A stretch of DNA of 64,000 nucleotides from contig NC_086107.1 of NCBI RefSeq assembly GCF_963921235.1, forward strand, positions 103,976,001-104,040,000, read 5' to 3'. The notes beneath the pieces are model-generated. The model ran no database searches, had not been told where the DNA came from, and saw only the letters and a program-made list of their open reading frames with translations. Shown here piece after piece: positions 1 through 61,400 of the stretch. Both the position numbers and the translations under genes were made by a program. The number at the start of each line of letters is the position of its first letter. The stretch's first letter is position 1. The stretch comes from Mobula hypostoma (taxonomy: Eukaryota).

Positions 1-204
1 CCCCCTATTAACTGTGACACACCTTCCAGGTGATTTCTCCAGTGCTGCCCGCCGTGGGCTGGAGGGTGTAGCTCAGACTGTGGCTGTTATCTTGAACAGC
101 CCTCTCATATTCTAAAGCTGATCCTCAATATGTTGTGTTCGATATGCGGGACAGTGCAGACAGAACACACACCAGGAGGCCTGTATTTATTATTTCACCT
201 CGTA

Positions 205-861
205 ATTCAAGTCAGAATTACCGATGCCAAGATTAAGGAAGGCATTTTTGTTGGTCCACAAATCAACAGGTCATCAATGACAGGCAATTGGAAGAACTTC
301 TAGTAGGATCGGAGAAAATCACATGGAAGGCATCCGAGGATGTTGTTAAAACAATTCTTGGCAACTACAGAGCACCAAACTACGTGCAGCTGGTTGACAA
401 CATGCGTCAAGCATACAAAACCACGAAGTGCAACATGTCACTAAAGATTCATTTTCCGCATTCCCATTTAGACTTCTTCCCTGCAAATCTTGGCGCTGTC
501 AGTGACGAGCAGGGTGAAAGATTTCACCAGGACATTGTGTTCGTGGAGAAACGGCATCAGGGCAACTGGAATCCATCAATCCTGGCTGATTACTGTTTTA
601 CTCTTAAGCAAGAAGCCTCAGACACTGAGTATGAACGAAAATCAACGAAACCCTTTCAGCTTAGTTGAACTTTTGCAAAGCGTCAGCATGGTTATGCAAT
701 TAAATATATTCCATTCAGTAAAAGATAATTTCTTATTTCTCGAAATTCTTACGTGATACAAGTAGTTTGAAATTATATTTGTGTTCATCTTCAAGCAGTC
801 GATCATAAACAGAAACAATTTCTGAGGAAGCAACACTCTCGAAAGAAATTTTTGTCCGGTG
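205..861 (+). mobile_element. Chapaev3/CMC-type DNA transposon, 3' fragment (copy 1)
   Basis: Transposase C-terminus IKEGIFVGPQI...MSLKIHFPHSHLDFFPANLGAVSDEQGERFHQDI; ends CCGGTG followed by TTA. Confidence 0.75.
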
Positions 862-2159: not shown

Positions 2160-3380
2160 CCGGGCGCTGCCTAGGACAGAAGGAGGAAGAGGAATAACAG
2201 ACTTCAAAAAATTTACGCAAGTCAAATAAAACTTCTAAGGATATATTTTCATCAACAGAAACAGGATTCGGCTCTCTAGAGAAGCACATACAATTCTGAT
2301 CAGAAGTACAAGCCACTAAACTTAAATGAGACACAACCCAGAAAAATGAAGAAAGTATCACTATTGAAGAAAAAGTTAACCAATGAAAGAGCATGAGCAT
2401 TGATGGAAGGCAGCCCCATGATCTGAGCAGACTAGATTTGGACAAGGAAGCGTCAAACACCTGGATCAGAGTTGGAGACCACTTCCCAAAAACAGAGGGG
2501 GTTCCTCATGGCAATACAGGACCAGGTGGTTAACCCAAAAAAAAGAACAAAAATACAGAATAAAAGTCCAACAAATTTAAGATGATAAATGCAGAAAATG
2601 CCAAGAGAAACCAGGAATAATCCAACACATTACAGGATCCTGCAGCGGTTTAACTCAACCTGATTTCTTACACAGGCACAATCAAGTGGCAAATCCCATT
2701 CATCGAAATCTTGCTTTAAAATACAAACTCATAACATAAATCATAACTATAAATAAATGCCTGATCCAGTTTTAGAGTCAGAATATCAGAAATTATATTA
2801 CGACTGATCTGTTATTTCAGATAGGACGATCCATAATAACCGTCCAGTAGATCAGGAGAGCTACCTGGACTTGATGTTTCAATCCCTATGGTAAGTTGGC
2901 ACTCTCGATGTTGGCAGTGGGTTTGGAGTGATGACAAGGAGGGAGGGTCGGTACGTCATCGGGATCATCAGGTGGGCACCCTCCTTCTTACAGGATAAAC
3001 AAGCCAGAACAACTTACTTAATAGATATAGCCATTCCAAATACATACACAATTTATAGAAATCATTAAGTGAAAAAAAACTCCAGAAATATGCTGATTTA
3101 AAAGAAGAAATTGAAAGACTTTGGAACATGAACAGGGTATACATTGTCCCAATAGTAATATCGACAACTGGTATCATCCCAAAGACACTACACAATGCTC
3201 ATTAAACAATTAGGGCTACTCAGCAATATATATGGAAATCTTCAGAAAGCCACAATACTAAACACGACTAGCATAATCCAAAAGTTACTAGCAATTGAGA
3301 AATGAGTGTACTTGGCTATTTCTTACTTCAGGCTTTACCAGCTTGAGCTGAGGAAAAATAAATTCCTATAATAATATCAA
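2160..3380 (+). mobile_element. R4/Dong-like non-LTR retrotransposon with restriction-like endonuclease, decayed
   Basis: Frame-shifted motifs AIQDQVV, CRKC...IQHITGSC (CCHC), RHNQVA, HNNRP and IDIAIP...KYADLKEEIERLW. Confidence 0.7.
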
Positions 3381-3859
3381 CTAATTAAATAAATATATAA
3401 GCGCCCAATGCTATTGACTTAAATTGTATTAAATTTTCAAGAATTTAACAATTTTCAAGAATTTAAACACCTGCTTATGCTTCTCTCTTGCTTCTTGTCC
3501 ATACCCCACCAAACTATCCAAAATAACAATATTGCTTCCCAGCATCGACTTACTCTCCCACTCATGTGCCCTACATTCCAGCAACACATGTGAGACTGTT
3601 CCTGCAAGTTGGCACTGTCTGTATTCACCTGAAGTACATTTAGCAAGTCTAAACAATGTGGCATTTAAACCTATATGGCCAAGTCTAAGCCGAGTAATTA
3701 TAACTTCTTCCCTTCTGGGCATTTCTGTCCTCCAAAGTAACCTTTTTTTCTAATTGCATATAAACGTCTCCTCTTCAATTGTGTAACCCATAGTCCTCGT
3801 CAGATTGAGAGAACATGGTTCTTAATTAATCCTTTGCCCCCCCCCCAACTTAGTGGAAT

Positions 3860-4364
3860 CTGTGGTTGTCCATTATGTCCAGTGATAACAAGAAACCTGT
3901 GTGTGAGTTTTTTTAAAGTTACACTGGGCATATCCACTCTCTCTCTAAACCTCAGAATCCAGTGGTATGAACAAGCAAACTGAGATCTTCCTCAGTTACA
4001 GTGGATGACCATGACGTCTTCTGTGCCTTGTCATGCCCTTCGCTCTCCACGGAGTGTCGCAATACCACCTTCCTGGCCGTTGGATCTCATCCACCCAGTC
4101 CACTGGAGCTGATTTTGCATGCTCGGAATGGTATGTCCCTATCTCAATGGGGTACGAGGCCGCCAGCTACCCTCACCTGGTTCAGCCAGCCTGTCGAAGC
4201 AATGTACCGGGGTGTTACTGCTGTTGCATGCAAACAGCAACTCGGAGCCACAGGTGAGAGCTCAGTGTCCAGCGGGGACCAAAGGTGACTCAGCTGCCCT
4301 GGAATGGACACGATAAGCCCCTTCACCAGAGGTGCTACCATTCCCTGGACACCCCAAACACCCT
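3860..4364. mobile_element. Unclassified 505-bp non-coding insertion (SINE-like)
   Basis: 12-bp TSD ACTTAGTGGAAT at 3848-3859 and 4365-4376. Confidence 0.65.
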
Positions 4365-5454: not shown

Positions 5455-7232
5455 ATAACCATTTTCTAATTGACAGCTGAAATCCTGGGACATAGACTGC
5501 CGCACTGGCATTGTGAGACACTGGGTCTTTAGAGCCATCAGTAAACACCGGTACCATTCCATAATATTGATTATGCATATATAGGGTCATACTACCTATT
5601 CAGATACACACCAGGCACATTCTGACTGCCTCTCTCAAACAGTCAAATCCATCCTAGGTGAAAGAAATCACCAGGGAGGAATAATGCTTCAAAACTTGCT
5701 ATCTTGATGTTCCCAAGAACCTTTCAACATATTCTTAATTGAATGATTATCCTCATGACCACCAATAATTCTAAGCCATCTGCAATCTTCGCAAGTACAT
5801 TGGCATCACCTGCAGAGCAGTAACGGGAGCAGACCCAAAGCTCCACAACCCAGACAAAAAGCTTGGGCTTGAATAACATCACTGGACAGCTATTTTTTTC
5901 CAAAAGTGTCGCTTCCTCAGAATTTTATTTTGCTTATGATAGACTGCTTGCAGCTAAACATAAATATAATTTCAGGCTGCTTGTATCACATAGGAATTTG
6001 GAGAAACGAAGCATTATTTTTTTTTATTCTAATGTGTTTACTTGCACAATGGTGCTGATGCATTGTAATAGTTTAACTGAGCTGAAAATGTTTTGTTGAT
6101 GATTTTCATTTATACTCAGTGTCTGAGGCTTCTTGCTTAAGAGTAAAACAGTAATCAACCAGCATTGATGGATTCCAGTTGCCCTGATTCTGTTTCTCCA
6201 TGACCGCGATGTCCTGGTGAAACCTTTCCCCATGCCCGTCACTGACAGTGCCAATATCTGCAGGGACAAAGTTGAAATGGGAATGCAGGAAATGAACCTT
6301 TAGTGAAATGTTGCACTTCATGCTTTTGTATGCTTGAAGCATGTTGCCAATCAGCTGCACGTAGTTTGGTACTCTTGCGTTGCCAAGAAAATTTTTAACA
6401 ACATCCTCGAATGCCTTCCATGTGATTTTCTCCGGTCCCACTAGAAGTTCTTCACACTGCCTGTCACTGATGACGTGTCTGATTTGTGGACCAACAAAAA
6501 TGCCTTCCTTAATCTGGGCATCAGTCATTCTGCGAAACACCTGTTTCAAACATTGAAATTTTTGTGCCTGGTGACAGCAAATTCCATCCTTGCGGTCTTA
6601 CTGAACCTAGTAATTCTGCTTTTGCCTTTGACAAACCCAAGTCGCTAACCAGGCATTTAACTCAGACTGAGTTATCAGATGAGGCTCACTGGACATAAAG
6701 TGTTCAAAATCTATACCAGTATCAGTGTCCTTTTCATTCCCGGCTTGCGCATCATGGCATCTTCTTCTGCCTCCTCTAGACTCCATGTCCCTGGTGGCCT
6801 CGGTACTAGGGAAGAACAGGTCTCAGGGCTGAAGGGCGATTGGGTATTCAGTAGATATATTGTTTTTAGTGGAGAAACCAGACGTACTGGTCAGACAGAA
6901 GTCCTACTCTGTCACATGATCCCCCTGCTCTCGCCATATTATCGGCATTGACTTCCGAGTAGCTCCCAGCCAAGCTCAAAGCTCGACAGCGCATGTCGCA
7001 CAGTGAGGACCCCAGGCTTTGTCTTAGTCGCAAATTTCACACCCAAAGAAGAGCGCTTGATACGAGGAACCATGTCCGTCTTTCGTACACACGTCAGAAA
7101 GGATCGCGGCTGTTGTAACATCGGCGAGACAATTTGCTATCGCAAATAATCCTGAAGATACACTCAATATGTTCTGCGCGTAGAGCATGCGCATCAACGT
7201 GATCACAAACCGATATACACGTAAACGCAACG

Positions 7233-7261
<29 letters not shown>
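7233..7261. repeat. (TG)n microsatellite next to the p53 motif array
   Basis: Perfect GT dinucleotide run. Confidence 0.95.
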
Positions 7262-7263
<2 letters not shown>

Positions 7264-7283
7264 ATGCTTTTACAACCTTTCAA

Positions 7284-7333
7284 AAACCTGTCCCGCCATG
7301 CCTAAGCATGCCCAAACATGCCTGGACAAGACA
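7284..7333. promoter_or_regulatory. Candidate p53/p63/p73 response element: five tandem decamers
   Basis: AAACCTGTCC CGCCATGCCT AAGCATGCCC AAACATGCCT GGACAAGACA; decamers 3 and 4 are perfect RRRCWWGYYY with no spacer; about 0.86 kb upstream of the BAX ATG. Confidence 0.7.
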
Positions 7334-7969
7334 GAAATCTTTTCAGCTTACATTATGAGCAACATTTTAATTGATTTGAATTATGAATGTAAATAACAAA
7401 TATAGACGACTCTTTGTGTGTTAGTGAAAATTCATGGTGATTTTCGTGAGCAGCTGCCCACAATCCATTAGATACACCCACACGCATTCAGGAAGCAGTG
7501 CGTCCCCGATTTTAAAAGCCATAATAACTGCCACAAAATAATCATAGGTTCTCTATTAATCCCCCACTCATAACCCACCAAACACCGAAGCACATCAAGG
7601 ACAGTCATACATCTCCCAAGTATTTTGTTGGCATGATGCTGTCAAACTTCACATCCATCCACATACCAGGAACCTAATCACCAACACTTGTTCCGTCGTC
7701 TGTCCAGACCGTCTAAGATCCGTTTACTAAAACGAATAAACCGAGTTTTTTTTTTGCTACTGCAAACTTAAACTCCCCTGTACAGGAAGTGGAAAAATGG
7801 AGTGAGCAGCCTGAACCTTATCATTTACAAAATTAGATTCCTGCCCTTTTTTTCCCATACAGCCCCCATCATCAGCATACAAGGACTTGGAAATGTCAGG
7901 ATCAACTTTAGAAGAAAAAAAAAATATTTATCATAATATTGATCGGGACAGGACAACTCCCTTTTTGGG

Positions 7970-8900
7970 CTAGTCCGGAGTTTGAAGACTAAAGTCAGAA
8001 GTCTTCTTCAGTCAAGCGAAGCGTTCCGTGATTGGACGTTGGGCGGAGGACCGCCCGCCTTATGAATATTAATTAGCGGTGGACAGCCCGATGGGCGGGC
8101 TCACGCATGCGTGTTGCGCCTTAGCAACCCTGGGAGCGCCGGGCTGCAGGGCTGCAGAGCTTCGGGTGGCGGCTGTGTGCGCGATGGCGGAAGTTGGCGC
8201 CGGTGATTGTGGCTGCGGTGATGCCGAGAGTCAGAAACAGAGACCGAGTGGCAGGACCACGCCCGGGCGGGTGGCAATGGGTGAGGAGCAATCCGAGCGG
8301 GCCGGGCTCCCGGGGAGGCCTTTTGCGATTGCCTGGTGTGTTGGGGGAGGCCTCTCCCCTCCGCTCGGAGGGGGAGGCCCATCCCGTTACTGAGGCTGAG
8401 GTGGGTGGTGAAAGAGGCCTGAACCGTTGCTTGGGGCGTGGGCGGAGAGGCCTATTCTAGTCCTTGGATGTGGTGAGCTCGCCGTTTTATCTGAACGCTG
8501 GAAAATTGAAGTTTAAAAAAAATGCTGGGAATCCTCGGCAGGTCAGATTCCATGGATGCAGAGTGAGGTCTATTTCGTTGCCCGGGGTTTTGTAGAGAAG
8601 GGAGAGGTTGGTCTCCTTTGCATCGGAGATGGCGGCTGCTGCAGAAGTTGGCGGGCGGCGGGAGCTCCGCTCCAGGTTAACCTGGTTTGTCACTTTTAGG
8701 GGACCGGAGGGTGGTGGTGCTCGGTAGTGTGTGTTGTAGGCCCTGTCTCCCTTGCTTGGATGTTGGCTGTCAGCTTGCCGCTGGGCTTTGTGCGTTAACT
8801 GCTTGCGGGCAGTTTCCTTGAGTTCGGAAGTGATGTCCGTGGTCCTTCAGCTGCTCGGGAGATATCTTCTTGCCGTATTGGCCGTAAAAGTCCAATTTCC
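7970..8900 (+). promoter_or_regulatory. BAX CpG-island promoter and first exon/intron
   Basis: CpG-dense; inverted CCAAT (ATTGG 8031-8035); GC boxes GGGCGG 8041 and CCGCCC 8051; AT-rich TATTAATTA near 8067; palindrome CACGCATGCGTG 8102-8113 (NRF1-like); YY1-like AGATGGCGGC near 8627. Confidence 0.85.
8184..8280 (+). CDS. BAX: BAX(-like) exon 1 (MAEVGAGDCGCGDAESQKQRPSGRTTPGRVAM, phase 1)
   Basis: Strong Kozak gcgATGG at 8184 inside a CpG island; donor G|GTGAGG at 8281; phase 1 joins exon 2 in frame, as in mammalian BAX exon 1. Sequence is divergent, so the start codon is less certain. Confidence 0.75.
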
Positions 8901-9683
8901 CGGCTCCTTAATCAGGTGGAGGGGCCAAGATCTAGCATTGATGTTGCATTGTGGGTTGCTAAAGGGCAGTCAGGGCTGTTTGCCTTTTCTCCCGAGGCTG
9001 AGGGAACTTTTGACCTGTTATGCTTCGCGAGTTGTGCTTCTCGCTTCCTTTGCTAAAATGACTGGTTTCGTATTGAACGTTCTCTTGGACATCATTGCAC
9101 ATGAAATCTATTTCATTTTGATTGTGTACGCTGTTTGTTCTTTACAGCTGTGTTTACTGGGAGATACAGTGCAGTTTTTGTAAACTTAACTAAACTGTTA
9201 GATTTATAATAATTGCGGTTTAAAATAGTTTATACTCGTCCTGGGCTTGTGTTTGTGTGTGGAACTCCAGCTGTTTTCGACCATAGAACAGTATGGTATA
9301 GTATGGGCCCCTTAGACCATGATCTGCTGACCTTCGAACCGGCCCCAACTTCAACCTAACCCTTCCCCCCTGTATAGCCTTCCATATTTATTTCATCCAT
9401 ATAACAATCCAAGAGTTTCTTAAAATCTCCCTAATGTATCTGCCTCTACCACCACCCTGACAATTTACCATGCTCTGGGTAAAAGAAAAAAAAAGACACC
9501 CCCCCCCCGCCCCATCACCATAAAAGTATGACCTTGCATATTAGCCATTCTTGCCCTGGGCATAAGGCACTGGCTGACCACTCTGTCAGTACTTCTTATC
9601 TTATTCACTTCTATCAAGTAACATCTCGTCCTCCTTTGTTCCAAAGAGAAAAGATCTAGCTTGTTCAACCTTTCCTCATAAGG

Positions 9684-12737: not shown

Positions 12738-12786
12738 ATCAAATTAGTGAGCAAATTATGCATACAGGGAAAACACTTTTACGTGA
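12738..12786 (+). CDS. BAX: BAX exon 2 (DQISEQIMHTGKTLLRE)
   Basis: Polypyrimidine tract plus TAG acceptor ending 12737; donor GTAAGT at 12787; matches human SSEQIMKTGALLLQG; phase 1 to 2. Confidence 0.92.
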
Positions 12787-15220: not shown

Positions 15221-15388
15221 ATTCATCGTGGATCGAGCAAATAGAGGAGTTGATGGTTGTGAGCTGCATTTAACTGCAGCTGAGCTTGGTGGTCGAGAAG
15301 AGGAACTGCATAATCCTGATGTGAAACGCCTTGCCGTCTGCCTGAGACAGATTGGGGACGAGCTTGATGGCAACAGAGAATTGCAAAG
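15221..15388 (+). CDS. BAX: BAX exon 3, BH3 domain (FIVDRA...LAVCLRQIGDELDGNRELQR)
   Basis: TTTCAG acceptor; AG|GTGAGA donor; BH3 motif LRQIGDELD; 168 nt, phase 2-2. Confidence 0.96.
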
Positions 15389-15862: not shown

Positions 15863-15998
15863 GATGATCGATGGTATTAGTGCCAAGTGTCCAAAGGAGA
15901 CATTTATCAAAGTAGCCAAGGAACAGTTTGCTGATGGAGTCATCAACTGGGGGAGAGTGGTGACACTCTTTTACTTTGCCTGCAAACTTGTTGTGAAG
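15863..15998 (+). CDS. BAX: BAX exon 4, BH1 domain (MIDGISAKCPKETFIKVAKEQFADGVINWGRVVTLFYFACKLVVK)
   Basis: CACAG acceptor; AAG|GTATGA donor; NWGR motif; 136 nt. Missed by the ORF track. Confidence 0.96.
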
Positions 15999-17374: not shown

Positions 17375-20300
17375 TAGAAAACCATAGAAAAACTACAGCA
17401 CAGAAACAGGCCTTTTGGCCCTTCTTGGCTGTGCCGAACTATTTTCTGCCTAGTCCCACTGACCTGCACACGGACCATATCCCTCCATACACCTCCCATC
17501 CATGTATCTGTCCAATTTATTCTTAAATGTTAAGAAAGAACCCGCATTTACCACCTCGTCTGTCAGCTCATTCCATACTCCCACCACTCTCTGTGTGAAG
17601 AAGCCCCTTCTAATGTTCCCTTTGAATTTTTCCCCCCTCACCCTTAACCCATGTCCTCTGGTTTTTTTTTCTCCCCTTGCCTCGGTGGAAAAAGCCTGCT
17701 TGCATTCACTCTATCTATACCCATCATAAATTTATATACCTCTATCAAATCTCCCCTCATTCTTCTCGGCTCCAGGGAATAAAGTCCTAACCTTTTCAAC
17801 CTTTCTCTGTAACTGAGTTTCTCAAGTCCCGGCAACATCCTTGTAAACCTTCTCTGCACTCTTTCAACCTTATTTATATCCTTCCTGTAATTTGGTGACC
17901 AAAACTGAACACAATTCTCCAGATTCGGCCTCACCAATGCCTTATACAACCTCATCATAACATTCCAGCTCTTATACTCAATACTTCGATTAATAAAGGC
18001 CAATGTACCAAAAGCTCTCTTTACAACCCTATCTACCTGTGACGCCACTTTTAGGGAATTTTGTATCTGTATTCCCAGATCCCTCTGTTCTACTGCACTC
18101 CTCAGTGCCTTACCATTTACCCTGTATGTTCTACCTTGGTTTGTCCTTCCAAAGTGCAATACCTCACACTTGTCTGTATTAAACTCCATCTGCCATTTTT
18201 CAACCCATTTTTCCAGCTGGTCCAAGTCCCTCTGCAGGCTCTGAAAACCTTCCTCACTGTCCACTACACCTCCAATCTTTGTATCATCAGCAAACTTGCT
18301 GATCCAATTTACCACATTATCATCCAGATCATTGATATAGATGACAAATAACAATGGACCCAGCACTGATCCCCGTGGCACACCACTAGTCACAGGCCTC
18401 CACTCTGAGAAGCAATTCTCTACTACCACTCTTTGGCTTCTTCCATTGAGCCAATGTCTAATCCAATTTACCACCCCTCCATGTATACCTAGCCACAGAA
18501 TTTTCCTAACTAACCTCCCATGCGGGACCTTGTCAAAGGCCTTACTGAAGTCCATGCAGACAACATCCACTGCCTTCCCTTCATCCACTTTCCTGGTAAC
18601 CTCCTTGAAAAACTCCCAATAGATTGATCAAACATGACCTACCAAGCACAAAGCCATGTTGACTCTCCCTAATAAGTCCCTGTCTATCCAAATGCTTGTA
18701 AATTCTGTCTCTTAGTACTCCCTCCAATAATTTACCGGCCTATAATTTCCCGGATTACTTTTCGATCCTTTTTTAAACAACAGAACAACATGAGCCACTC
18801 TCCAATCTTCCGGCACCTCACCCATAAACACCGACATTTTAAATATATCTGCCAGGGCCCCTGCAATTTCAACATTAGTCTCCTTCAAGGTCCAAGGGAA
18901 TACCCTGTCAGGTCCTGGGGATTTATCCACTTTAATTTGCCTCAAGATAGCAAGCACCTCCTCCTTTTCAATCTGTACAGTTTCCATGATCTCACTACTT
19001 ATTTCCCTTAATTCCATAGACTTCATGCCAGTTTCCTTAGTAAATACAGACTCAAAAAACCCATTTAAGATCTCCCCCATTTCTTTTGGTTCCGCACATA
19101 GCCGACCACTCTGATCTTCAAGAGGACCAATTTCATCCCGTACAATCCTTTTACTCTTAATATACCTGTAAAAACTCTTTGGATTATCCTTCACTTTGAC
19201 TGCCAAGGCAACCTCATGTCTTTTAGCCCTCCTGATATCTTAAGTATTTTCTTGCGCTTTTTATACTCCTCAAGCAGCTTATTTACTCCCTGTTTCCTAT
19301 ACATGTCATACAACTCTCTCTTCTTTTTTATCAGAGTTGCAATATCCCTTGAGAACCAAGGTTCCTTATTCCTATTCACTTTGCCTTTAATCCTGACAGG
19401 AACATACAAGCTCTGCACTCTCAAAATTTCTCCTTTGAAGGCTTCCCACTTACCGATCACATCCTTGCCAGAGAACAACCTGTCCCAATCCACGCATTTT
19501 AGATCCTTTCTCATTTCTTCAAACTTGGCCGCCTTCCAGTTCAGAACCTCAACCCTAGGACCAGATCTATCCTTGTCCATGATCAAGTTGAAACTAATGG
19601 TGTTATGATCACTGGAACCAAAGTGCTCCCCTACACACACTTCCATTACTTGTCCTAACTCATTTCCTAACAGGAGATCCAATATTGCATCCCCTCTAAT
19701 TGGTACCTCTATATATTGATTTAGAAAACTTTCCTGAACACATTTTACAAACTCTAAACCATCTAGACCCCTAACAGTATGGGAGTCCCAATCAATATAT
19801 GGAAAATTAAAATCCCCTACCACCATAGCTTTGTTTCCTGTAGTTGCCTGCTATCTCTGTGCAGATTTGCTCCTCCAATTCTTGCTGACTATTGGGTGGT
19901 CTATAATACAACCCCACTAATGTGGCCATACCATTCCTGTTTCTCAGCTCCACCCATAAGGACTCAGTAGACAAGCCTTCTAATCTATCCTGCCTGAGCA
20001 CTGCTGTAATATTTTCCCTAACAAGCAATGCTACCACCACCCCCCCCCACCCCACCTTTCATTCCTCTGCCTCGATCACATCTGAAACATCGGAACCCTG
20101 GAATATTAAGCTGCCAGTCCTGCCCCTGCTGTAGCCGAATTTCACTAATTGCTTTAACATCATAATTCCACGTGTCAATCCACGCCCTCAACTCATCCAC
20201 CTTCCCTACAATACTCCTAGCATTGAAATATATACACCTCAGAAGATTTTTACCACCACTCACAACCTTTCTATTTGCAGCTTTGCTTAAACTTTCAACA

Positions 20301-20530
20301 TCATTTATTTTCACCCCAGCCACACTGTCAGCTCTGACACTCTGGTTCCCATCCCCCTGCAAATCTAGTTTAAAGCCTCCCCAATAGCACTAACAAACCT
20401 CCCTGAAAGGATATTGGTCCCCCTGTGGTTCAAGTGTAACCCGTCTCTCTTGTACAGGTCCCACCTGCCCCAGAAGAGGTCCCAATGATCCTGAAATTTG
20501 AAACCCTGCCCCCTACACCAGTTCCTCAGG
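17375..20530 (-). mobile_element. CR1 LINE, long copy in BAX intron 4 (ORF1 esterase end plus frameshifted ORF2 endonuclease-RT)
   Basis: DGLHLN (SGNH-like ORF1), NARSI, GDFNFP, SDH, DFSKAFDKV, GSVLGP and FADD motifs. Confidence 0.93.
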
Positions 20531-24231: not shown

Positions 24232-24336
24232 GCCCTGTGCCAGAAGATTCCAGACATGATCCAGACTATAATCAGTTGGACTATGGAATACATCCAGGAG
24301 CACATTCTACGTTGGATTCGTGACCTTGGGGGTTGG
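24232..24336 (+). CDS. BAX: BAX exon 5, BH2 domain ([35 protein letters not shown])
   Basis: TTCTAG acceptor; TGG|GTGAGT donor; WIxxxGGW motif; 105 nt, phase 0-0. Confidence 0.96.
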
Positions 24337-26804: not shown

Positions 26805-28316
26805 CACTGGCAACTAATTTTTCTGAAATTGTTGCTTCCTCAATTTTTTTTGTTTATGATAGACCACTTGAACACAAATAATATAATTTCAGACTACATG
26901 TATCTTGTAGGAATTTGGAGAAACAAAGAATTGACTTTTATTGAATATAATGCATTTAATTGCATAACGATACTAATGCTTTGCAGTAGTTCAACTCAGC
27001 TAAAAATGTTTTGTTGATGACTTTCACTCATACTCAGTGTCTGTGGCTTCTCGCTTAAGTGTCCAACAATAATCACCCAGCATTGATGAATTCCAGTTGC
27101 CCTGATACCGTTTCTCCATGACTGCAATGTCCTGGTGAACCCTTTCACCATGCTCGTCACTGACAGCGCCAAGATTTGCAGGGATAAAGTCTAAGTGGGA
27201 ATGCAGAAAATGAATCTTTAGTGACATGTTGCTCTTCATGGTTTTATGCTTGAAGCATGTCGTCAACCAGCTGCACATAGTTTGGTGCTCTGTAGACACT
27301 AGAATACTACAGCACAGTACAGGCCCTTCAGTCCTCGATGTTGTGCTGACCCATATATTCCTTTTTAAAAAAAAATACTAAACCCACACTACCCCGTAAC
27401 CCTCTATTTTTCTTTCATCCATGTGCCTGTCCAACAGGCTCTTAAATACCCCTAATGTTTTAGCCTCCACCACCATCCCTGGCAAGTTATCCCAGGCACC
27501 CACAACCCTCTGTGTAAATAAAAAAAAAACATACCCCTGATGTCTCCCCTAAACTTCCCTCCCTTAACTTTGTACATATGCCCTCTGGTGTTTGCTATTC
27601 GTGCCCTGGGAAACAGGTACTGGCTATCCACCCTACCTATGCCTCTCATAGTCTTGTAGATCTCTTTCAAGTCCCCTGTTATCCTTCTACTCTCCAAAGA
27701 GAAAAGTCCCAGTTCTGCTATCCTTGCCTCATAAGACTTGTTTTCCAATCCAGGCAACATCCCGATAAATCTCCTCTGCACCCCCTCCAGAGCTTCCACA
27801 TCCTTCCTCTAATGACGTGACCAGAACTGAACACAATACTCTTTAAGTGTGGTCTCACCAGAGATTTGTAGAGATCTGTAGTTGCCAAGAAAATTTTCAA
27901 ACATCTGTGAATGTCTTCCATGCAGTTTTCTCCAGACCCACTAGAAGTTCTTCGAATTACCTGTCATTAATGACCTGTTGATTTGTGGACCAACAAAAAA
28001 GCCTTCCTTAATCTTGGCATCTGTCATTCTGGAAAACATCTGTCTCAAATATTGAAATTCTTCATGGAAATTTATAGCTATTCCAAAACCTGTCCTGCCA
28101 TGCAGCATCTGCCCTGCTTAAGCATGCCTGGGCAAGATAGAATACTTTGCAGCTTATATTAACATTTTAATCTTCTTGAGTTATGAAATTAAATATAGGT
28201 GATTTAAAGAAAAAGTGTGTGATAGGGAAATTTTATGGTAATTTTCATGATCAACGGCCCAAAATCCGTAAGATTCACCCAAAAGTACTCAGGAAGCAAA
28301 TCTTTGTTTTCCAGTG
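26805..28316 (-). mobile_element. Chapaev3/CMC-type DNA transposon in BAX intron 5 (copy 3)
   Basis: TTA-CACTGG...CCAGTG-TTA, i.e. short TIRs and a perfect 3-bp TSD; HFLHSH and DEHGERVHQD motifs; interrupted by a CR1. Confidence 0.85.
27296..27874 (-). mobile_element. CR1 LINE 3' fragment nested in Chapaev copy 3
   Basis: LEGVQRRFIGMLPGL / LGLFSLE motifs; TSD TCTGTAG at 27289-27295 and 27875-27881. Confidence 0.85.
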
Positions 28317-28391: not shown

Positions 28392-28487
28392 GAAGCGCTG
28401 CTGGGCACCCCCACCTGGCAAGCTGCTGCCATCTTTGGCCTGGGAGTCCTCACCACTTTGGCTGTGGTACGATGGAAATCTTCCTAA
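28392..28487 (+). CDS. BAX: BAX exon 6, C-terminal membrane anchor (EALLGTPTWQAAAIFGLGVLTTLAVVRWKSS*)
   Basis: TTTCACAG acceptor; GTPTWQ motif then a hydrophobic helix; TAA at 28485-28487. Total CDS 651 nt = 216 aa plus stop. Confidence 0.95.
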   Translation, partial: EALLGTPTWQAAAIFGLGVLTTLAVVRWKSS

Positions 28488-37177: not shown

Positions 37178-38075
37178 CAGTTGCAAGAAAAGGTTTGGGA
37201 ACCCTTTGCAATTACCTGGTTTTCTGCTTTAATTACTCAAAATGTGGTCTGATCTCCATCTTAGTCACAATAATAGACGAGCACAATCTACCTAAGCTAA
37301 TAACACACAAACAATTGTAATTTTCATGTCATTGAACATTTTGTTTAATCATTCACGGTTCAGGCTGGAAAAAGTATGTGAACCCTTGTATTTAATAACT
37401 GGTAGAACCTCCCTTAGCGGCAATGACCACCACCAAACATTTCCTGGAGCTGCTGATCAGACTTGCACAGTGGCAAGGAGGGATTTTAGACCATTCCTCC
37501 ATAAAAAACCGTTTCAGTTCATCAATATTTCTGGGATACCTTGCACAAACAGCCGCCTTCAGGTCATGCCACAGCATTTCAATTGGATTAGGGTCTGGAC
37601 TCTGACCTGGCCATTCCAAAACACAAAGTTTCTTCTTTTTAAACCATTTTGTCATTGATTTACTCTTTGTGTTTTGGATCACTGTCTTGTTGCATCATCC
37701 AATTTCTATTAATTTTGTTCAGTGTTTTTCTTTATAGTGGAGACATGAACGGAGACTTTAGCAAGTTTGAGAGATCTCTGCAGATCTTTTGCCATTACCT
37801 TGGGTTCTTTTTCACCTTCTTCAGCATTGCATGTTAAGCTCTTGGTGTGATGTTTGCAGGATGCCCACTCCTAGGGAGAGTAGCAACAGTACTGAATTTC
37901 CTCCATTTCTAGACAATTTCTCTTACCGAGGACTGATGAACACTCAGGTCATTAGAAATGCTTTTGTGGCCTTTTCTAGCTTCATGCATCTCTACAATTC
38001 TGAGGTCCTCTGAAAGTGGTTTTGATTGAGGCTTAGTGCACATAAACAGATCTTTCTTGAGAAGAGCAGGCTCTT
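37178..38075 (-). mobile_element. Tc1-like transposon, truncated
   Basis: TA-CAGTTG terminus; internal direct repeat AAAAGTATGTGAACCC; WPGQSPDPNPIEMLW motif. Confidence 0.85.
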
Positions 38076-39260: not shown

Positions 39261-40157
39261 TAGACACGCTGAGAAAGCACTAAATCCTTTTTTTGTCTTC
39301 ACCACATAAAGTGCCTATAAAAAGCATTCACCACCCCACGGAAATTTACATGTTTTATTGTTTTACAACACAGTGAATTTAGTTTGGCTTTTTTTTTGGC
39401 ACTGATCGACAGAAAAAGACTTTTGTGTCAAAGTGAAAACAGATCTTTACAAAGTGATCCACATTAATTGATTGCATAAGTATTCACCCCCTTTAATATG
39501 ACACACCAAATCATCACTGGTGCAGCCAATTGGCTTTAGAAGTCATAATTAGTTAAATTGAGATCGCCTGTGTGCAGTCAAGGTGTTTCAATTGATTGTA
39601 GTAAAAATACACCTGTGTCTGGAAGGTCCAACTGCTAGTGAAGCTGTATTCTGGCAAAAGCTACACCAGGGAGACAAAAGAACCCTCCAAGCAATTCTAT
39701 GAAAATGTTATTGAAAAGCACAAGTCAGGAGTTGGAGACAAGAAAATTTCTAGGTCATTGAATATCCCTTGGAGTACAGTTAAGACAATCATCAAGAAAT
39801 GGAAAGAATATAGTAGATCTGCCTAGAGCAGGCCGTCCTCATAAAACTGAGTGACCGTGCAAGAAGGGGACAAGTGAGGGAGGCCACCAAGAGACCTGTG
39901 ACAACTCTGGGGGAGTTACAAGCCTCAGTGGCTGAGATGGGAGAGACTGGGCATCCAACAACTGTTGCCCGGGGGCTTCACCAGTCGCAGCTTTATGAGA
40001 GCAAGGCAAAGAGAAAGCCACTGTTGGGGAAAAAAACTCTCATGAAATCTCAGCTAGAGCTCACCAGAAGGCATGTGGGAGACACTGGAGTCAGCTGGAA
40101 GAGGGTTCTATGGTCTGATGAAACCAAAATTGAGCTTTTTGGCCATCAGACTAAACA

Positions 40158-41942
40158 TTTTAGTTCAGTCTCTCCCCACCTACATCCGTGATACATCCCA
40201 TGCCCTCCACCTCTTCAATAACTTCCAATTCCCCAGTCCCAACCGCTTCATTTTTACTATGGATGTCCAATCCTTATATACTTCCATTCCCCATCAAGAA
40301 GGCCTCAAGGCCCTCCGCTACTTCCTGGATAATAGACCTCACCAGTTCCCCACCACCACTACCCTCTTCCGGTTGGCAGAACTGGTTCTCACACTTAATA
40401 ACTTCTCTTTTGACTCTTCCCATTTTCTTCAGACTAAGGGTGTAGCTATGGGAACTCGCAAGGGACCCAGCTACGCCTGCCTCTTCGTTGGTTATGTGGA
40501 ACAGTCTATGCTCCAAACCTATACTGGTACTGCTCCCCAACTTTTCCTTCGGTACATTGACGACTACATTGGTGCTGCTTCCTGCACCCATGCTGAGCTC
40601 GTCAATTTCATTGACTTTACTTCAAACTTCCACCCAGCACTCAGATTCACTTGGTCTATCTCGGACACTTCTCTCCCCTTTCTCGATGTCTCAGTCTCCA
40701 TCTCTGGAGACAGACTGTTCACTGACATCTTCTACAAGCCCACTGACTCTCATAACTACCTCGACTATACCTCTTCCCACCCCGCCACATGCAAAAATGC
40801 CATTCCCTATTTTCAGTTCCTCCGTCTCTGCCGCATCTGCTCCCAGGATGAGGCTTTCCGTTCCAGGACATCTCAAATGTCCTCTTTCTTTAAGGGTCAT
40901 GGTTTCCCTTCTGCCATCATCAATGATGCCCTCACTCGCATCTCCTCCATTTCCCGCATTTCGGCCCTCACCCCATCTTCCTGCCACCACAACAGGGACA
41001 GAGTTCCCCTTGTCCTCACCTACCACCCCACCAGCCTCCGGATCCAGCACGTTATCCTCCGCAACTTCCGCCACCTTCAACAGGACCCCATCTTTCCCTC
41101 TCCACCCCTCTCTGCCTTCCGCAGGGATCAATCCCTCCGCGACTCCCTGGTCCACACGTCCCTCCCCACGGATCTCCCACGTGGCACTTATCCCTGTAAG
41201 CGCAAGTGCTACACCTGTCCCTACACCTCCTCTCTTGCAACCATTCAGGGCCCCAAACAGTCCTTCCAGGTGAGGCAACACTTCACTTGTGAGTCTGTTG
41301 GGGTCACCTATTGCATCTGGTGATCCCGGTGCGGCCTCCTCTACATCGGTGAAACCCGACGCAGATTGGGGGACCGCTTCGTCGAGCACCTCCGCTCTGT
41401 CTACCACAACAGACAGGATCTCCCGGTAGCCACCCACTTCAACTCTGCTTCCCATTCCCATTCAGATATGTCCATACATGGCCTCCTCTACTGCCATGAT
41501 GAGGCTAAACTCAGGTTGGAGGAGCAACACCTCATATACCGTCTAGGTAGTCTCCAGCCCCTTGGTATGAACATTGAATTCTCCAACTTCCGGTAATTCC
41601 CTCCCCCTCCCTTCCTCTGTCCCTATTTCACTCTGCCCCCTCCCCCAGCTGCCTATCACCTCCCTCATGGTTCCGCCTCCTTCTGCTACCCATTGTTTTC
41701 CTGTCTATGACGTCGATGCTTCCCCTCCCCCACCCCTTTGTCTTTCAAATTACTGGTCTTTCAACTGAAGCTACAAGTATTCTTCAAATCCTTCCCCCTC
41801 CTTCATTCTTCAGTCCTGACGAAGGGTTCCGGCCGGAAACGTCGACTCATCGTTTCCACTGATGCTGCCCGACCTGCTAAGTTTCTCCAGTGTACTGAAA
41901 GTGTTGCTTTGATCACAGCATCTGCAGATTATTTTCTGTTTA
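40158..41942 (+). mobile_element. Penelope-like retroelement, 5'-truncated (RT plus GIY-YIG)
   Basis: MDVQSLYTSI, GVAMG and YIDD motifs; one stop at 41321-41323, then YIGET...; 10-bp TSD AGACTAAACA at 40148-40157 and 41943-41952. Confidence 0.92.
41812..41847 (+). ncRNA. Minimal type I hammerhead ribozyme motif (Penelope terminus)
   Basis: AGTC-CTGACGA-stem II-GAAA-CGTC-GACT. Confidence 0.7.
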
Positions 41943-42701
41943 AGACTAAACACTTTGTTTGCTGTAAGCTAAAAACACCACACATCATCAAAAACACACC
42001 ATCCCTACCATGAAGTATAGTGGTGGCTGCATCATGCTGTGGGGATGCTTCACTGCAGCAGGCCCTGAAAGGCTTGTGAGGGTAGAGGGTAAAATGAATG
42101 CAGCAAAATACAAAGAAATCCTGGAGGAAAACCTGATGCAGTCTGCAAGAGAATTGCGACTTAGGAGAAAATTTGTTTTCCAGCAAGACAATGACCCCAA
42201 GCATAAAGCCAAAGCTACACAGGAATGCTGTAAAAACAACAAAGTTAATATTCTGGAGTGGCCAAGTCAGAGTCCAGACCTCAATCCAATTGAGAATTTG
42301 TGGCTGGACTTGAAAGAGCTGTTCACTCACGATCCCCGTGCAATCTGACAGAGCTTGAGCAGTTTTGTAAAGAAGAATGGGGAAAAATTGTAGTGTCCAG
42401 ATGTGCACAGCTGATAGAGACCCATCCACACAGACTCAAGGCTGTAACTGCTGCCAAAGGTGCCTCTAATAAATACTGACTTGAAGGGAGTGAGTAATTA
42501 TGCAATCAATTATTTTGTGTTTTATATTTGTAATAAATTTAGCCCTATTTGTAGAAATTTGTTTTTACTTTGACACAAAAGTATTTTCTGTTGATCAGTG
42601 TCAAAAAAGCCAAATTAAATCCACTGTGATTCAATGGTTATTACAGTAAAACTGAAAACTTCCGGGGGGGTGGGGGGGTGGAATATTTTTTACGGGCACT
42701 G

Positions 42702-54139: not shown

Positions 54140-54950
54140 TCCCAGTGTCCCAGCAGAAACTCCCACTCAGTCCCAGCACATCTATGACCTGTTCCAAACA
54201 GAACTGCCACACACTCCTGGCAGAAACTCCCACTCACCCCCAACACATCTGTTATTTGTTCCAGACAGAACAGTTACTCACTCCCAGCTGAACATCCATT
54301 TGCTCCCAGCAGAAACCCCCACTCAGTCCCAGCACATCTACTGTCTGCAACAGAACTGCTACCCATTCCCAGCAGAAACCCCCCATGTACCCAACATACT
54401 GCATCTGCTACCCCTTCTCAAAAGCCTAACTCCCACCCCCACCCCACAGAAACTCCCCACTCAGTCCCAACACACCTGCTACCCTTTCCCAACAGACCTG
54501 CCACCTACTCCCAGCAGAACTCCCATTCACTTCCAGCAGAAGCCTTCTAGTCTCAGCATATCTGCCAACTGTTGCCAACAGACCTGCAGCCCATTCCCAG
54601 CTGAACTCCCATTCACTCCCAGCAGAAACCCTCTAGCCTCAGCATATCTGCCAACTGTTCCCAACAGACCTGCCACCTACTCCCAGCTGAAACCCTCTAG
54701 TCTCAGCATATCTGCCAACTGTTCCCAACAGACCTGCAACCCATTCCCAGCTGAACTCCCACTCACTCCCAGCAGAAACCTCACTCATCCAGGCAGAGCT
54801 ATTTCCACTACACCGCCACACCCAGCAGAACTCCCACTCACTCCCAGCAGAACTCCCACTCATCCAGGCAGAGCTATTTCCACTACAACATCAGTACCTA
54901 CTTTAACCACTCCCAGTAGAGCTCCCACTCACTCCCAGCAGGATCCAATT
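54140..54950. repeat. Degenerate C-rich tandem repeat array upstream of CDA
   Basis: Recurrent CCCAGCAGAA(A)CTCCCACTCA; CTCAGCATATCTGCCAACTGTT three times; 31-bp CACTCATCCAGGCAGAGCTATTTCCACTACA twice. Confidence 0.85.
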
Positions 54951-55049: not shown

Positions 55050-55600
55050 ATTGCCTCATCCCGTGCTGCTGCTGACACGTGTTTGGCCAGCTCCAGCGAA
55101 CAGTGCTCACAGACACACACACGCGCGTACAGTCCGTCTCTGACACGGGAGCCTTCTCGGCGTTGTCTAAAGCCGGCCGCTGTTGTGTGTGACAGGACAG
55201 GATGTGCACTCCCGCGGAGCAAACAGCCACCCAGAAAGCGCAGGAGGCCGACAAGCTGATCGAGAAAAGCCACGAGGCCAAGGCCTGTTCTTACTCTCCG
55301 TACAGCAGGTTCCCGGTGGGCGCCGCTCTCCTGACCGAGGATGGGAAGATCTTCACAGGTGAGGCGTCTGGCCGCGCACCGCTAACCCACGCCAGGCGGC
55401 TGGGCTGAGGGAGGTGAATGTAACGCAGGTAACTCCCGTGAGGACGCAGGAGCAGGTGGTCTGTATTCAGTGCGGTTCCGTTAGACTTCTGTGGAAGACA
55501 CGGAGGCGCAGCCGGGGACCCCGGGTTCGATCCTGACCTCCGGCGTTGTTAGTCATTTGCGCGTTCTCGCGGTTCCTCGGGACGCTCCGGCGGTACCACA
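55050..55600 (+). promoter_or_regulatory. CpG island over the first CDA coding exon
   Basis: High CpG density (cgcgcg, gccggccg and similar) relative to flanks. Confidence 0.7.
55202..55358 (+). CDS. CDA: Cytidine deaminase, first coding exon (MCTPAEQ...SYSPYSRFPVGAALLTEDGKIFTG)
   Basis: PYSxFPVGAALLT motif of homotetrameric CDA; donor AG|GTGAGG at 55359, phase 1; lies in a CpG island. Confidence 0.93.
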
Positions 55601-57545: not shown

Positions 57546-57767
<222 letters not shown>

Positions 57768-58419: not shown

Positions 58420-61400
58420 TCGTAATCTCAGGCTTGCTACCAGTGCCACGTGCAGGCAGGTTTAGAAATAGTAAGATAGTGCAGATCAACACGTAGCTGA
58501 AGACATGGTGCAGGAGGGAGGGCTTCAGATTTATAGATAATTGGGCAGTTTTCCAGGGAAAGTGGGACCTGTTCTGGCAGGGCAGTTTACATCTGAACTG
58601 GCGGGGGGAAAAATATTCTTGCAGGTAGGTTTGCTAGTGAGGCTGCAGTGGATTTAAACTAGATACAAGGGGGGAGGGGAACCAGAGTTTAGGAACAGAT
58701 GTAGGGGAGAAGGAAGAAAAAGGAGATTGTAAAGTTGTTCGCACCGTTAGTGATAAACAGAGCAAGAAGTGGAAAATTTCTTAAATGCACTTATTTTAAT
58801 GCTAGGAGCATTATAAGAAAGGTGGATGAGCTTAGAGCATGGATTGACACCTGGAAGTATGATGTTGTAGCTATTAGTGAAACATGGTTGCAGGAGGGGT
58901 GTAATTGGCAACTAAATATTCCTGGATTTCATTGCTTCTGGTGTGATAGAATCGGAGGGACAAGAGGGGTAGGTGTTGCATTGCTTGTCAGAGAAAATAT
59001 TACAGCGGTGCTTTGGCAGAATAGATTAGAGGGCTCGTCTAAGGAGGCTATTTGGGTGGAATTGAGGAATGGGAAAAGTGTAGTAACACTTATAGGGGTG
59101 TATTATAGACCACCAAATGGGGAGCGAGAATTAGAGGAGCAAATTTGTTAGGAGATAGCAGATATTTGTAGTAAGCACAAGGTTGTGATTGTGGGAGATT
59201 TTAATTTTCCACACATAGACTGGGAAGCCCATACTATAAAAGGGCTAGATGGTTTGGAGTTTGTAAAGTGTGTGCAGGATAGTTTTTTGCAGCAATACAT
59301 AGAGGTACCAACTAGAGAAGGGGCAGTGTTGGATCTCCTGTTAGGGAATGAGATAGGTCAGGTGATGGAGGTTTGTGTTGGGGAGCACTTCCGGTCCAGT
59401 GATCACAATGCCATTTAGTTTCAATATAATTATGGAGAAGGATAGGTCTGGACCCAGGGTTGAGATTTTTGATTGGAGAAAGGCTAACTTTAAGGAGATG
59501 CGAAAGGATTTAGAAGGAGTGGATTGGGACAATTTGTTTTAAAGGAAGGATGTAACAGAGAAATGGAGGTCATTTAAAGGTGAAATTTTGAGGATACAGA
59601 ATCTTTATGTTCCTGTTAGGTTGAAAGGAAAAGTTAAAAGTTTGAGAGAGCCATGGTTTTCAAGGGATATTGGAAACTTGGTTCGGAAAAAGAGAGATAT
59701 CTACAGTATATATAGGCAGCATGGAGCAAATGAGGTGCTCCAGGAATATAAAGAATGTAAAAAGAATCTTTAGAAAGAAAGAAATTAGAAAAGCTAAAAG
59801 AAGATACAAGGTTGCTTTGACAAGTAAGGTGAAAATAAATCCAAAGGGTTTCTACAGTTATATTAATAGCCAAAGGATAGTGAGGGATAAAATTGGTCCC
59901 TTAGAGAATCAGAGTGGACAGCTATGTGTGGAGCCAAAAGAGATGGGGGGAGATTTTGAACAATTTCTTTTCTTCGGTATTCACTAAAGGAGAAGGATAT
60001 TGAATTGTGTAAGGTAAAGGAAACAGGTAGGGAAGTTATAGAAACTATGATGATTAAAGAAGAGCAAGTACTGGCGCTTTTAAGGAATATAAAAGTGGCT
60101 AAGTTTCCGGGTCCTGACAGGATATTTCCTGGGACCTTGAGGGAAGTTAGTGTGGAAATAGCAGGGGCTCTGACAGAAATATTTCAAATGTCATTAGAAA
60201 CAGGAATGGTGCCGGAGGATTGGCGTATTGCTCATGTTGTTCCATTGTTTAAAAAGGGTTCTAAACCTGTGTGGGCACGTGGCCAAGTAGTTAAGGCATT
60301 GGACTAGCTACCTGAAGGTCGTGAGTTTGAGCCCCAGCCGAGGGAACGTGTTGTGTCCTTGAGCAAGGCACTTAATCACACATTGCTCTGTGACGACACT
60401 GGTGCCAAGTTGTATGTGAGTTTGATGTCAGTGGTGGGTAAATTGATGGAAAGTATTCTTAGAGATGGTGTATATAATTATCTGGATAGACAGGGTCTGA
60501 TTAGGAACAGTCAACATGGATTTGTATGTGGAAAGTCATGTTTGACAAATCTTATTGAATTGTTTGAAGAGGTTACTAGGAAAATTGATGAGGGTAAAGC
60601 AGTGGATATTGTCTATATGGACTTCAGTAAGGCCTTTGACAAGGTTCCACACAGAAGGTTAGTTAGGAAGTTTCAATCATTAGGTATTAATATTGAAGTA
60701 GTAAAATGGATTCAGCAGTGGCTGGATGGGAGACACCAGAGTGTAGTGGTGGATAACTGTTTATCAGATTGGAGGCCGGTGACTAGTGGTGTGCCTCAGG
60801 GATCTGTACTGGTCCAATGTTGTTTGTCATATATATTAATGATCTGGATAATGGGGTGGTAAATTGGATGAGTAAGTACGCAGATGATACTAAGATAGGT
60901 GGAGTTGTGGATAATGAAGTAGGTTTTCAAAGCTTGCAGAGAGATTTAGGCCAGTTAGAAGAGTGGGCTGAAAAATGGTAGATGGGGTTTAATGCTGATA
61001 AATATGAGGTGCTACATTTTGGTAGGACTAATCAAAATAGGACATACATGGTAAATGGTAGGGCATTGAAGAATGCAGTAGAACAGAGGGATCTAGGAAT
61101 AATGGTGCATAGTTCCCTGAAGGTGGAATCTCATGTGGATAGGGTGGTGAAGAAAGCTTTTGGTATGCTGGCCTTTATTAATCAGAGCATTGAGTGTAGG
61201 AGTTGGGATGTAATGTTGAAATTGTACAAGGCGTTGGTGAGGCCAAATTTGGAGTATTATGTACAGTTCTAGTCACCGAATTATAGGAAAGATGTCAACA
61301 AAATAGAGAGAGTACAGAGAAGATTTACTAGAATGTTACCTGGGTTACATCACCTAAGTTACAGAGAAAGGTTGAACAAGTTGGGTCTTTATTCTTTGGA

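Follow-up and report, generated by a model that had tools for sequence, protein, structure and literature searches.

This locus raises the question of whether a transposon supplied BAX with its p53 response element. In the window, which is the whole 64-kb stretch of DNA analysed, the candidate element comprises the following sites.

7284..7333, no strand: five in-register p53-type half-sites with 1, 2, 0, 0 and 2 mismatches to RRRCWWGYYY, all C4/G7 cores intact
7304..7323, no strand: perfect p53 consensus site with spacer 0 and two CATG cores

The first-pass annotation had proposed five decamers in a 10-bp register, two of them perfect, adjacent and without a spacer, at ~0.86 kb from the BAX ATG. 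The register at 7284-7333 was confirmed letter for letter, the perfect pair is that at 7304-7323, and the distance from the array end to 8184 was measured as 851 bp. A p53 response element is defined as two RRRCWWGYYY decamers with a spacer of 0–15 (PMC5007497), and 7304-7323 has this form. It is the sole perfect zero-spacer dimer within the 64-kb window. A perfect dimer, a trimer with at most 2 mismatches and a pentamer, even when 8 mismatches were allowed, each occurred in none of 200 dinucleotide shuffles of the window. For dimers with 2 mismatches the window is unremarkable (4 observed vs 2.69 expected, cores not enforced), and the zero-spacer dimers with at most 3 mismatches and intact cores number six, all of which lie in the two Chapaev3-type 5' ends that carry an array. 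The array is real and is not explained by chance.

The gene downstream of the array is BAX on the evidence of its predicted exons, which are listed below with the upstream region.

7501..8183, plus strand: single-copy BAX upstream region of 683 bp between transposon and ATG, TATA-less, CpG-island edge
8184..8280, plus strand: BAX exon 1, coding part
12738..12786, plus strand: BAX exon 2
15221..15388, plus strand: BAX exon 3 (BH3-like)
15863..15998, plus strand: BAX exon 4 (BH1)
24232..24336, plus strand: BAX exon 5
28392..28487, plus strand: BAX exon 6, coding part

The six exons were located with their splice signals from 8184 to 28487. Exon 4 matched BAX chains with an E value of 6e-12 (the next-best protein was BCL2A1, 2e-6) and also matched Pfam Bcl-2, while an Atlas search with exon 3 as the query returned only BH3-type leads with scores below 0.9. 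The upstream region contains what we take to be a CCAAT box at 8031, GC boxes at 8041, 8051 and 8093, and an NRF1-like motif at 8104. A consensus scan found no site comparable to the array in the 683-bp non-TE promoter or in intron 1, which hold nothing beyond isolated perfect half-sites at 7967 and 9857 plus two pairs with 3-4 mismatches. The absence of a comparable site noted in the first-pass annotation thus stands, but its promoter length of ~400 bp does not. By consensus matching, the array is the strongest p53 site of the BAX promoter and intron 1.

Other features were observed farther along the window. Downstream of BAX lie two exons of a cytidine-deaminase-like gene (55202-55357 and 57636-57743, plus strand; Pfam dCMP_cyt_deam), and a block of tandem repeats with units of 22, 64, 75 and 86 bp is found just upstream of this gene at 54153-54887. 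The segments 17644-20389, 37392-37694, 39817-42435 and 58705-60862 are presumably, from their translations, LINE reverse-transcriptase remnants and Tc1-like transposase fragments.

The array lies within one of three copies of a transposon family in the window.

5880..7500, minus strand: dead, internally deleted Chapaev3-type DNA transposon of ~1.6 kb, 3' terminus recognisable at 5880
6085..7132, minus strand: broken transposase remnant covering residues ~6-217 and 399-560 of P0005, with stops and frameshifts
7233..7261, no strand: (GT)14.5 microsatellite in the stretch separating the array from the transposase start
26805..28316, minus strand: second family copy, in BAX intron 5, with CACTGG/CCAGTG ends and TTA on both sides
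28086..28139, no strand: p53-type array in the second family copy, with 2 mismatches in its best dimer and 5 in its trimer
167..861, plus strand: third family copy, of a deletion type joining 6532 to 7377, without the array

The copy at 5880-7500 and BAX are arranged head-to-head. Its 5' terminus is damaged or shortened, no clean target-site duplication was seen, and the former transposase start codon at 7132 is now TTG. The array is placed 167-216 bp inside the 5' end of the element and 152-201 bp before this former start codon, which supports the earlier assignment of the array to the 5' non-coding end of a Chapaev3-type transposon. The transposase remnant matches residues 33-217 and 399-560 of the 560-aa protein P0005, at 67% over the C-terminal part, and for the majority sequence of the three window copies identity to P0005 reaches 78% across 97 residues. 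In a tree calculated without L005, L047, L054 and L055, whose matches were too short, the window copies fall in a 7-row clade (98/99) with P0005, P0007, P0008/L040 and P0009. The P0005 cluster (90%) contains proteins of three teleosts and of the horseshoe crab Tachypleus; near the window's family as it is, this cluster is a candidate case of horizontal transfer. No Pfam family was assigned to the transposase remnants or to P0005. Viral contigs yielded no relative and did not contain a 19-base motif of the family, and the sole match among prokaryote genome contigs was one 570-bp fragment without a leader (L081). This contig, from a Flavobacterium assembly, carries a Chapaev3-type transposase fragment and is probably contamination.

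Chapaev3 elements have 5'-CAC...GTG-3' ends with terminal inverted repeats and a 3-bp TWA target duplication (PMC4079192). In the window, CACTGG/CCAGTG termini are seen at the intron-5 copy and the BAX copy keeps its 3' terminus; TTA flanks 26805-28316 on both sides and stands behind the copy ending at 861. An A before and a T after the duplication were also looked for: the T is present at the 861 end, and both are absent from the two sides of the old intron-5 copy. Chapaev3 transposases are marked by C(2)C, LH and H(4)H motifs and a DDE core. The H(4)H motif is present in the BAX copy, from which residues 218-398, the region with C(2)C and LH, are deleted, and this region is retained in the relatives P0005-P0011. 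The termini and the duplication, together with the general features of the group, suggest the name Chapaev3-type; Chapaev3 does not appear as a name in any database row.

The intron-5 copy, which had been overlooked in the first-pass annotation, ends 75 bp before the last BAX exon. Its 5' end is 72% alike to 7279-7497 and retains the motif, and BAX therefore has two TE-borne p53-type arrays, 21 kb apart. A LINE reverse-transcriptase piece (~27295-27880) is nested in this copy with a 7-base repeat at both edges that resembles the target duplication of the LINE, which is accordingly younger than the transposon copy. A tblastn extension had placed the intron-5 array as coding for transposase residues 371-395, and this placement was rejected as a chance match because the same DNA in the BAX copy sits upstream of the start codon.

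The distribution of the family was examined in contigs of four public runs (three organisms), which were taken from the 18 runs, none of them RNA, that were listed in a DNA search as matching the stretch. The contigs were aligned to 5700-8400 at 84% likeness, and 8,379-9,599 contigs per large run fit this interval. Contig depth in the array bin was 3,119-4,190 in the three large runs vs 6-34 in the unique flank at 7520-7974, figures that are not copy numbers. Small shares of runs X9-X15 and zero shares of X16-X18 were not taken as presence or absence. In 34 contigs of X11 and 3 of X14, the alignment begins at 7299 and extends to the right, while the sequence to the left of that point runs on into a longer family form. 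The consensus of these loose ends agrees with the intron-5 copy at 29 of 30 and 28 of 30 letters and is 14 bases longer than the BAX copy; some contig joints stop at 7310 instead of 7299. Since the motif is carried by the intron-5 copy and by paralogous contigs of related organisms, it is, on this comparison, a family trait ancestral to an abundant transposon family and not an invention at BAX.

In the simplest reading, the family ancestor would have had both central units and two more half-sites at a 4-bp offset. A loss of 14 bp between two half-site-like repeats would then have brought five half-sites into register in the BAX copy, and one 10-bp unit would have been lost from the intron-5 copy. 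Although the pairwise alignment of the two arrays is ambiguous, the five-in-register form most likely arose by this 14-bp deletion; a gain of one unit specific to BAX appears less likely.

The orthologous BAX locus of a related species, organism B, also contains the insertion, with both junctions spanned. One contig crosses the 3' junction (5700-6006; 5 differences, 31 gap positions), another crosses the 5' junction (7359-8400; 21 differences, 14 gap positions), and a third covers 6676-7225 with 11 differences. Of 28,551 pieces, 32 were listed, and the array lies in the interval that separates piece 23 from piece 24 of organism B. Among the joints listed, none crosses the element in organism C or D, and in C the depth over 7065-7155, which resembles that of single-copy DNA, gives no more than a hint. 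As judged from these contigs, the insertion upstream of BAX is fixed and common to at least one related organism. Divergence from organism B is ~2% and is equal in transposon DNA (11/550) and promoter DNA (21/1042). Private changes amount to 43 of 489 sites (8.8%) in the BAX copy and to 7.8% and 7.2% in the other two window copies. Because the decay of the BAX copy itself, at 8.8%, exceeds the ~2% between the organisms, the insertion would be several times older than the split from organism B, if rates were similar.

Neutral simulations at 8.8% divergence left the central 20-mer perfect in 35% of cases and the whole array no worse than observed in 10%, and at 12% divergence the values were 23% and 4.5%; the site had been chosen for analysis because it is intact. 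The arrays of the two copies differ at 4 of 47 positions vs 104 of 631 in other aligned parts (Fisher p 0.10); against the rest of the 5' end (32/149), p was 0.03 in a post hoc comparison on an ambiguous alignment. The survival of the array in the BAX copy is thus compatible with neutral decay. The exaptation put forward in the first-pass annotation is so far unsupported, the motif being ancestral to an abundant family and its survival fitting neutral decay.

These results bear on the explanation that the array is a neutral passenger, a site for the family's own use that landed near BAX by chance and survived by chance with no selected effect. We consider this possible, though at clearly less than even odds. 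It agrees with the survival probabilities (central site, 0.35; array, 0.10), the abundance of the family, the equal divergence of transposon and promoter, and the decay of the intron-5 copy, of the same ancestry, to a weaker site; the register, too, would follow from the mechanism of a 14-bp deletion between half-site-like repeats lying 14 bp apart. It agrees less well with a perfect site, with CATG cores and no spacer, less than 1 kb from the CpG-island promoter of a canonical p53 target that has no competing site in its promoter or intron 1, and approximately half of the comparable zebrafish TE sites are active (PMC3485254).

The role of the array within the transposon was approached through derivatives and relatives. 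The array-less 6532-to-7377 derivative is the best-supported deletion form among the joints listed (55, 95, 80 and 6 contigs in the four runs), and none of the three window copies has the motif at its 3' end. Because this much-amplified derivative lacks the array, the array is, from the sequences compared, not needed in cis for transposition. The derivative and the motif-free 3' ends argue against transposase-binding repeats and fit a promoter element. The position of the array before the transposase start likewise suggests a promoter element of the active transposon, in which it would have served as a site driving transposase.

CACTA-type transposons often have subterminal repeats. The decamers could accordingly be transposase-binding subterminal repeats, or a 10-bp tandem repeat made by slippage, with an accidental likeness to p53 sites. 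The copies do differ in the array by 10-bp and 14-bp steps, which are typical of slippage, and TRF reported a weak 10-bp repeat at the array with a score of 40. Subterminal binding repeats are, however, hard to reconcile with their absence from all three 3' ends and with the transposition of the amplified derivative, and the variation among the five units spares every C4/G7 core. We regard this as the least probable of the explanations considered.

An array general to Chapaev3 was ruled out as follows. Among 80 metagenome loci, 32 had a located N-terminus, and in none of these 32, 5 of which had less than 125 bp upstream, was a zero-spacer dimer with fewer than 4 mismatches found within 600 bp upstream. 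L022, the closest relative whose 5' end is intact, shows 72% likeness in its first 128 bases and has no p53 site at the homologous place; a single perfect half-site is located 79 bp upstream of its ATG. A weak four-unit p53-like register occurs 138-146 bp before the ATG of an unrelated Chapaev3 family (L016 501-540, L045 1620-1659 and L055 475-514). These were the only 3 matches at that score among 253,381 positions, and the L016 and L045 registers beat 200 of 200 mononucleotide shuffles. They contain no perfect half-site, the scoring was chosen after seeing the data, and the family is one among about a dozen; the register is regarded as a lead only. An AP-1 word flanks it on one side and an E-box, present in L016 and L045, on the other; L052 has a deletion at this place. 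CRE, AP-1 or E-box words stand 100-200 bp before the ATG in 6 of 17 Chapaev3 leaders with a recognised 5' end, a count made with no shuffle control and in a set in which a few 5' ends may be misplaced. The leaders of L002, L003, L007, L009, L019 and L065 have such words, mostly 100-200 bp before the ATG. In a far-reaching scenario, a horizontally moving Chapaev3 family would have taken up the array as a damage- or meiosis-responsive transposase promoter and seeded the ray genome with it, the copy with the 14-bp deletion would have become a selected p53 switch of BAX, and the L016/L045/L055 register would be a second, independent capture. We consider this scenario unlikely.

The RRRCWWGYYY consensus is the same for p53, p63 and p73 and does not tell them apart. 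The site may be bound for the silencing of the transposon, or by p63 or p73 in skin or germ line, instead of by p53 activating BAX. The array is in the element's own leader, the same type of position as in LINE1, whose 5'UTR is bound and repressed by p53, and p53 restrains germ-line retroelements in flies and fish (PMC7608743). Selection in an active element would, however, tend to remove a repressive site, whereas the array shows slightly fewer changes between copies than the remainder of the 5' end (4/47 vs 32/149), and the 5880-7500 copy can no longer move. Such a role seems improbable here.

The reading that we prefer is that the leader of a Chapaev3-type family carries the array and that the insertion brought it to 0.85 kb upstream of BAX, where it would bind p53-family proteins and provide this lineage with the main element through which BAX responds to damage. 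The site is palindromic and would work towards BAX although the element faces away, and the array would be bound and relevant in vivo. From the sequence evidence, we assign a probability of roughly 0.5 to the array being bound by the p53 family and serving as this main element. Function is favoured because the site is strong and well placed, there is no rival site, zebrafish offers a TE precedent and BAX elements turn over. In that precedent, 14 of 27 EnSpm-N6_DR regions were p53-responsive in reporters, only 43% of the 7 promoter-class regions responded, and trim8a also needed a non-TE site (PMC3485254). The p53 elements of apoptosis genes turn over fast between lineages, BAX being a named example, and those of human BAX have little or no rodent homology (PMC1934401), so that lineage-specific BAX sites are usual. 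Cartilaginous fish are among the jawed vertebrates for which the full set of three p53-family genes is inferred, and the p53 of lamprey binds a consensus site (PMC4743058). Function is disfavoured because the family is abundant and few predicted sites are bound by p53: among matrix-predicted p53 sites, less than 8% are bound (PMC7498329), and at a density of 3 copies per 64 kb, an insertion close to one or another p53 target would be expected somewhere.

If functional, the array would give a dated, testable origin of the p53-BAX link in cartilaginous fish. The transposon family would be a candidate supplier of p53 sites throughout ray genomes and a candidate for a cut-and-paste transposase wired to the host damage response, a relationship examined mainly for LINE1 and LTR elements. 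If non-functional, the array would be just another TE-borne consensus match. BAX as the target and direct testability raise the importance of the case; the precedents and the unproven exaptation lower it.

The first-pass annotation had implied some novelty in a DNA transposon as carrier of p53 sites, a kind of carrier that is already known (PMC3485254, PMC3032802, PMC5007497); hAT-borne p53 sites, for example, are described in zebrafish (PMC5007497). For p53 sites in Chapaev elements or cartilaginous-fish TEs, no report was found in the literature covered, which excluded most subscription journals and Repbase reports. The spreading of p53 sites by DNA transposons is therefore not new.

Among known systems, Merrow, Garfield and Conan (Zhang et al. 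2014, PMC4079192) are similar to the window's family in their CAC...GTG ends, TWA duplication, transposase of ~560 aa and patchy host range. The Merrow transposase has two exons, the first of 78 aa (PMC4079192), and this two-exon structure of Merrow and Garfield is absent in the window's family, whose N-terminus is single-exon (residues 33-182 in one intron-free alignment of 447 nt). That article mentions neither p53 nor sharks, and its supplement file 2 contains zero CATGCC, CATGTC and GACATG and one GGCATG, in coding DNA (PMC4079192). Among human TE-borne p53 elements (Cui et al. 2011, PMC3032802), repeats account for 24 of 157 functional sites, in Alu, MIR, LTRs and the hAT element MER81 at SCARA3. 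Such elements either pre-existed in the family ancestor or were made by CpG decay (PMC3032802). These are mostly retroelements, and BAX is absent from the main text, while the array here would be of the pre-existing kind. The 5'UTR of LINE1 (Tiwari et al. 2020, PMC7608743) likewise shows p53 sites placed in the promoter region of the mobile element itself; it belongs to a retroelement whose repression was shown by experiment, whereas the array is a candidate site in a DNA transposon, where any effect may be of either sign. EnSpm-N6_DR of zebrafish (Micale et al. 2012, PMC3485254) is also a DNA transposon of the CMC group (CACTA/EnSpm-Chapaev) with built-in half-sites at many loci, some of them near p53 targets. 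It differs in that it is non-autonomous, is 346 bp long, has 210 copies and is backed by reporter evidence; the main text of that report makes no mention of BAX (PMC3485254). The array described here, known from its sequence, lies in the leader of a transposase-coding family, with five half-sites in register beside BAX.
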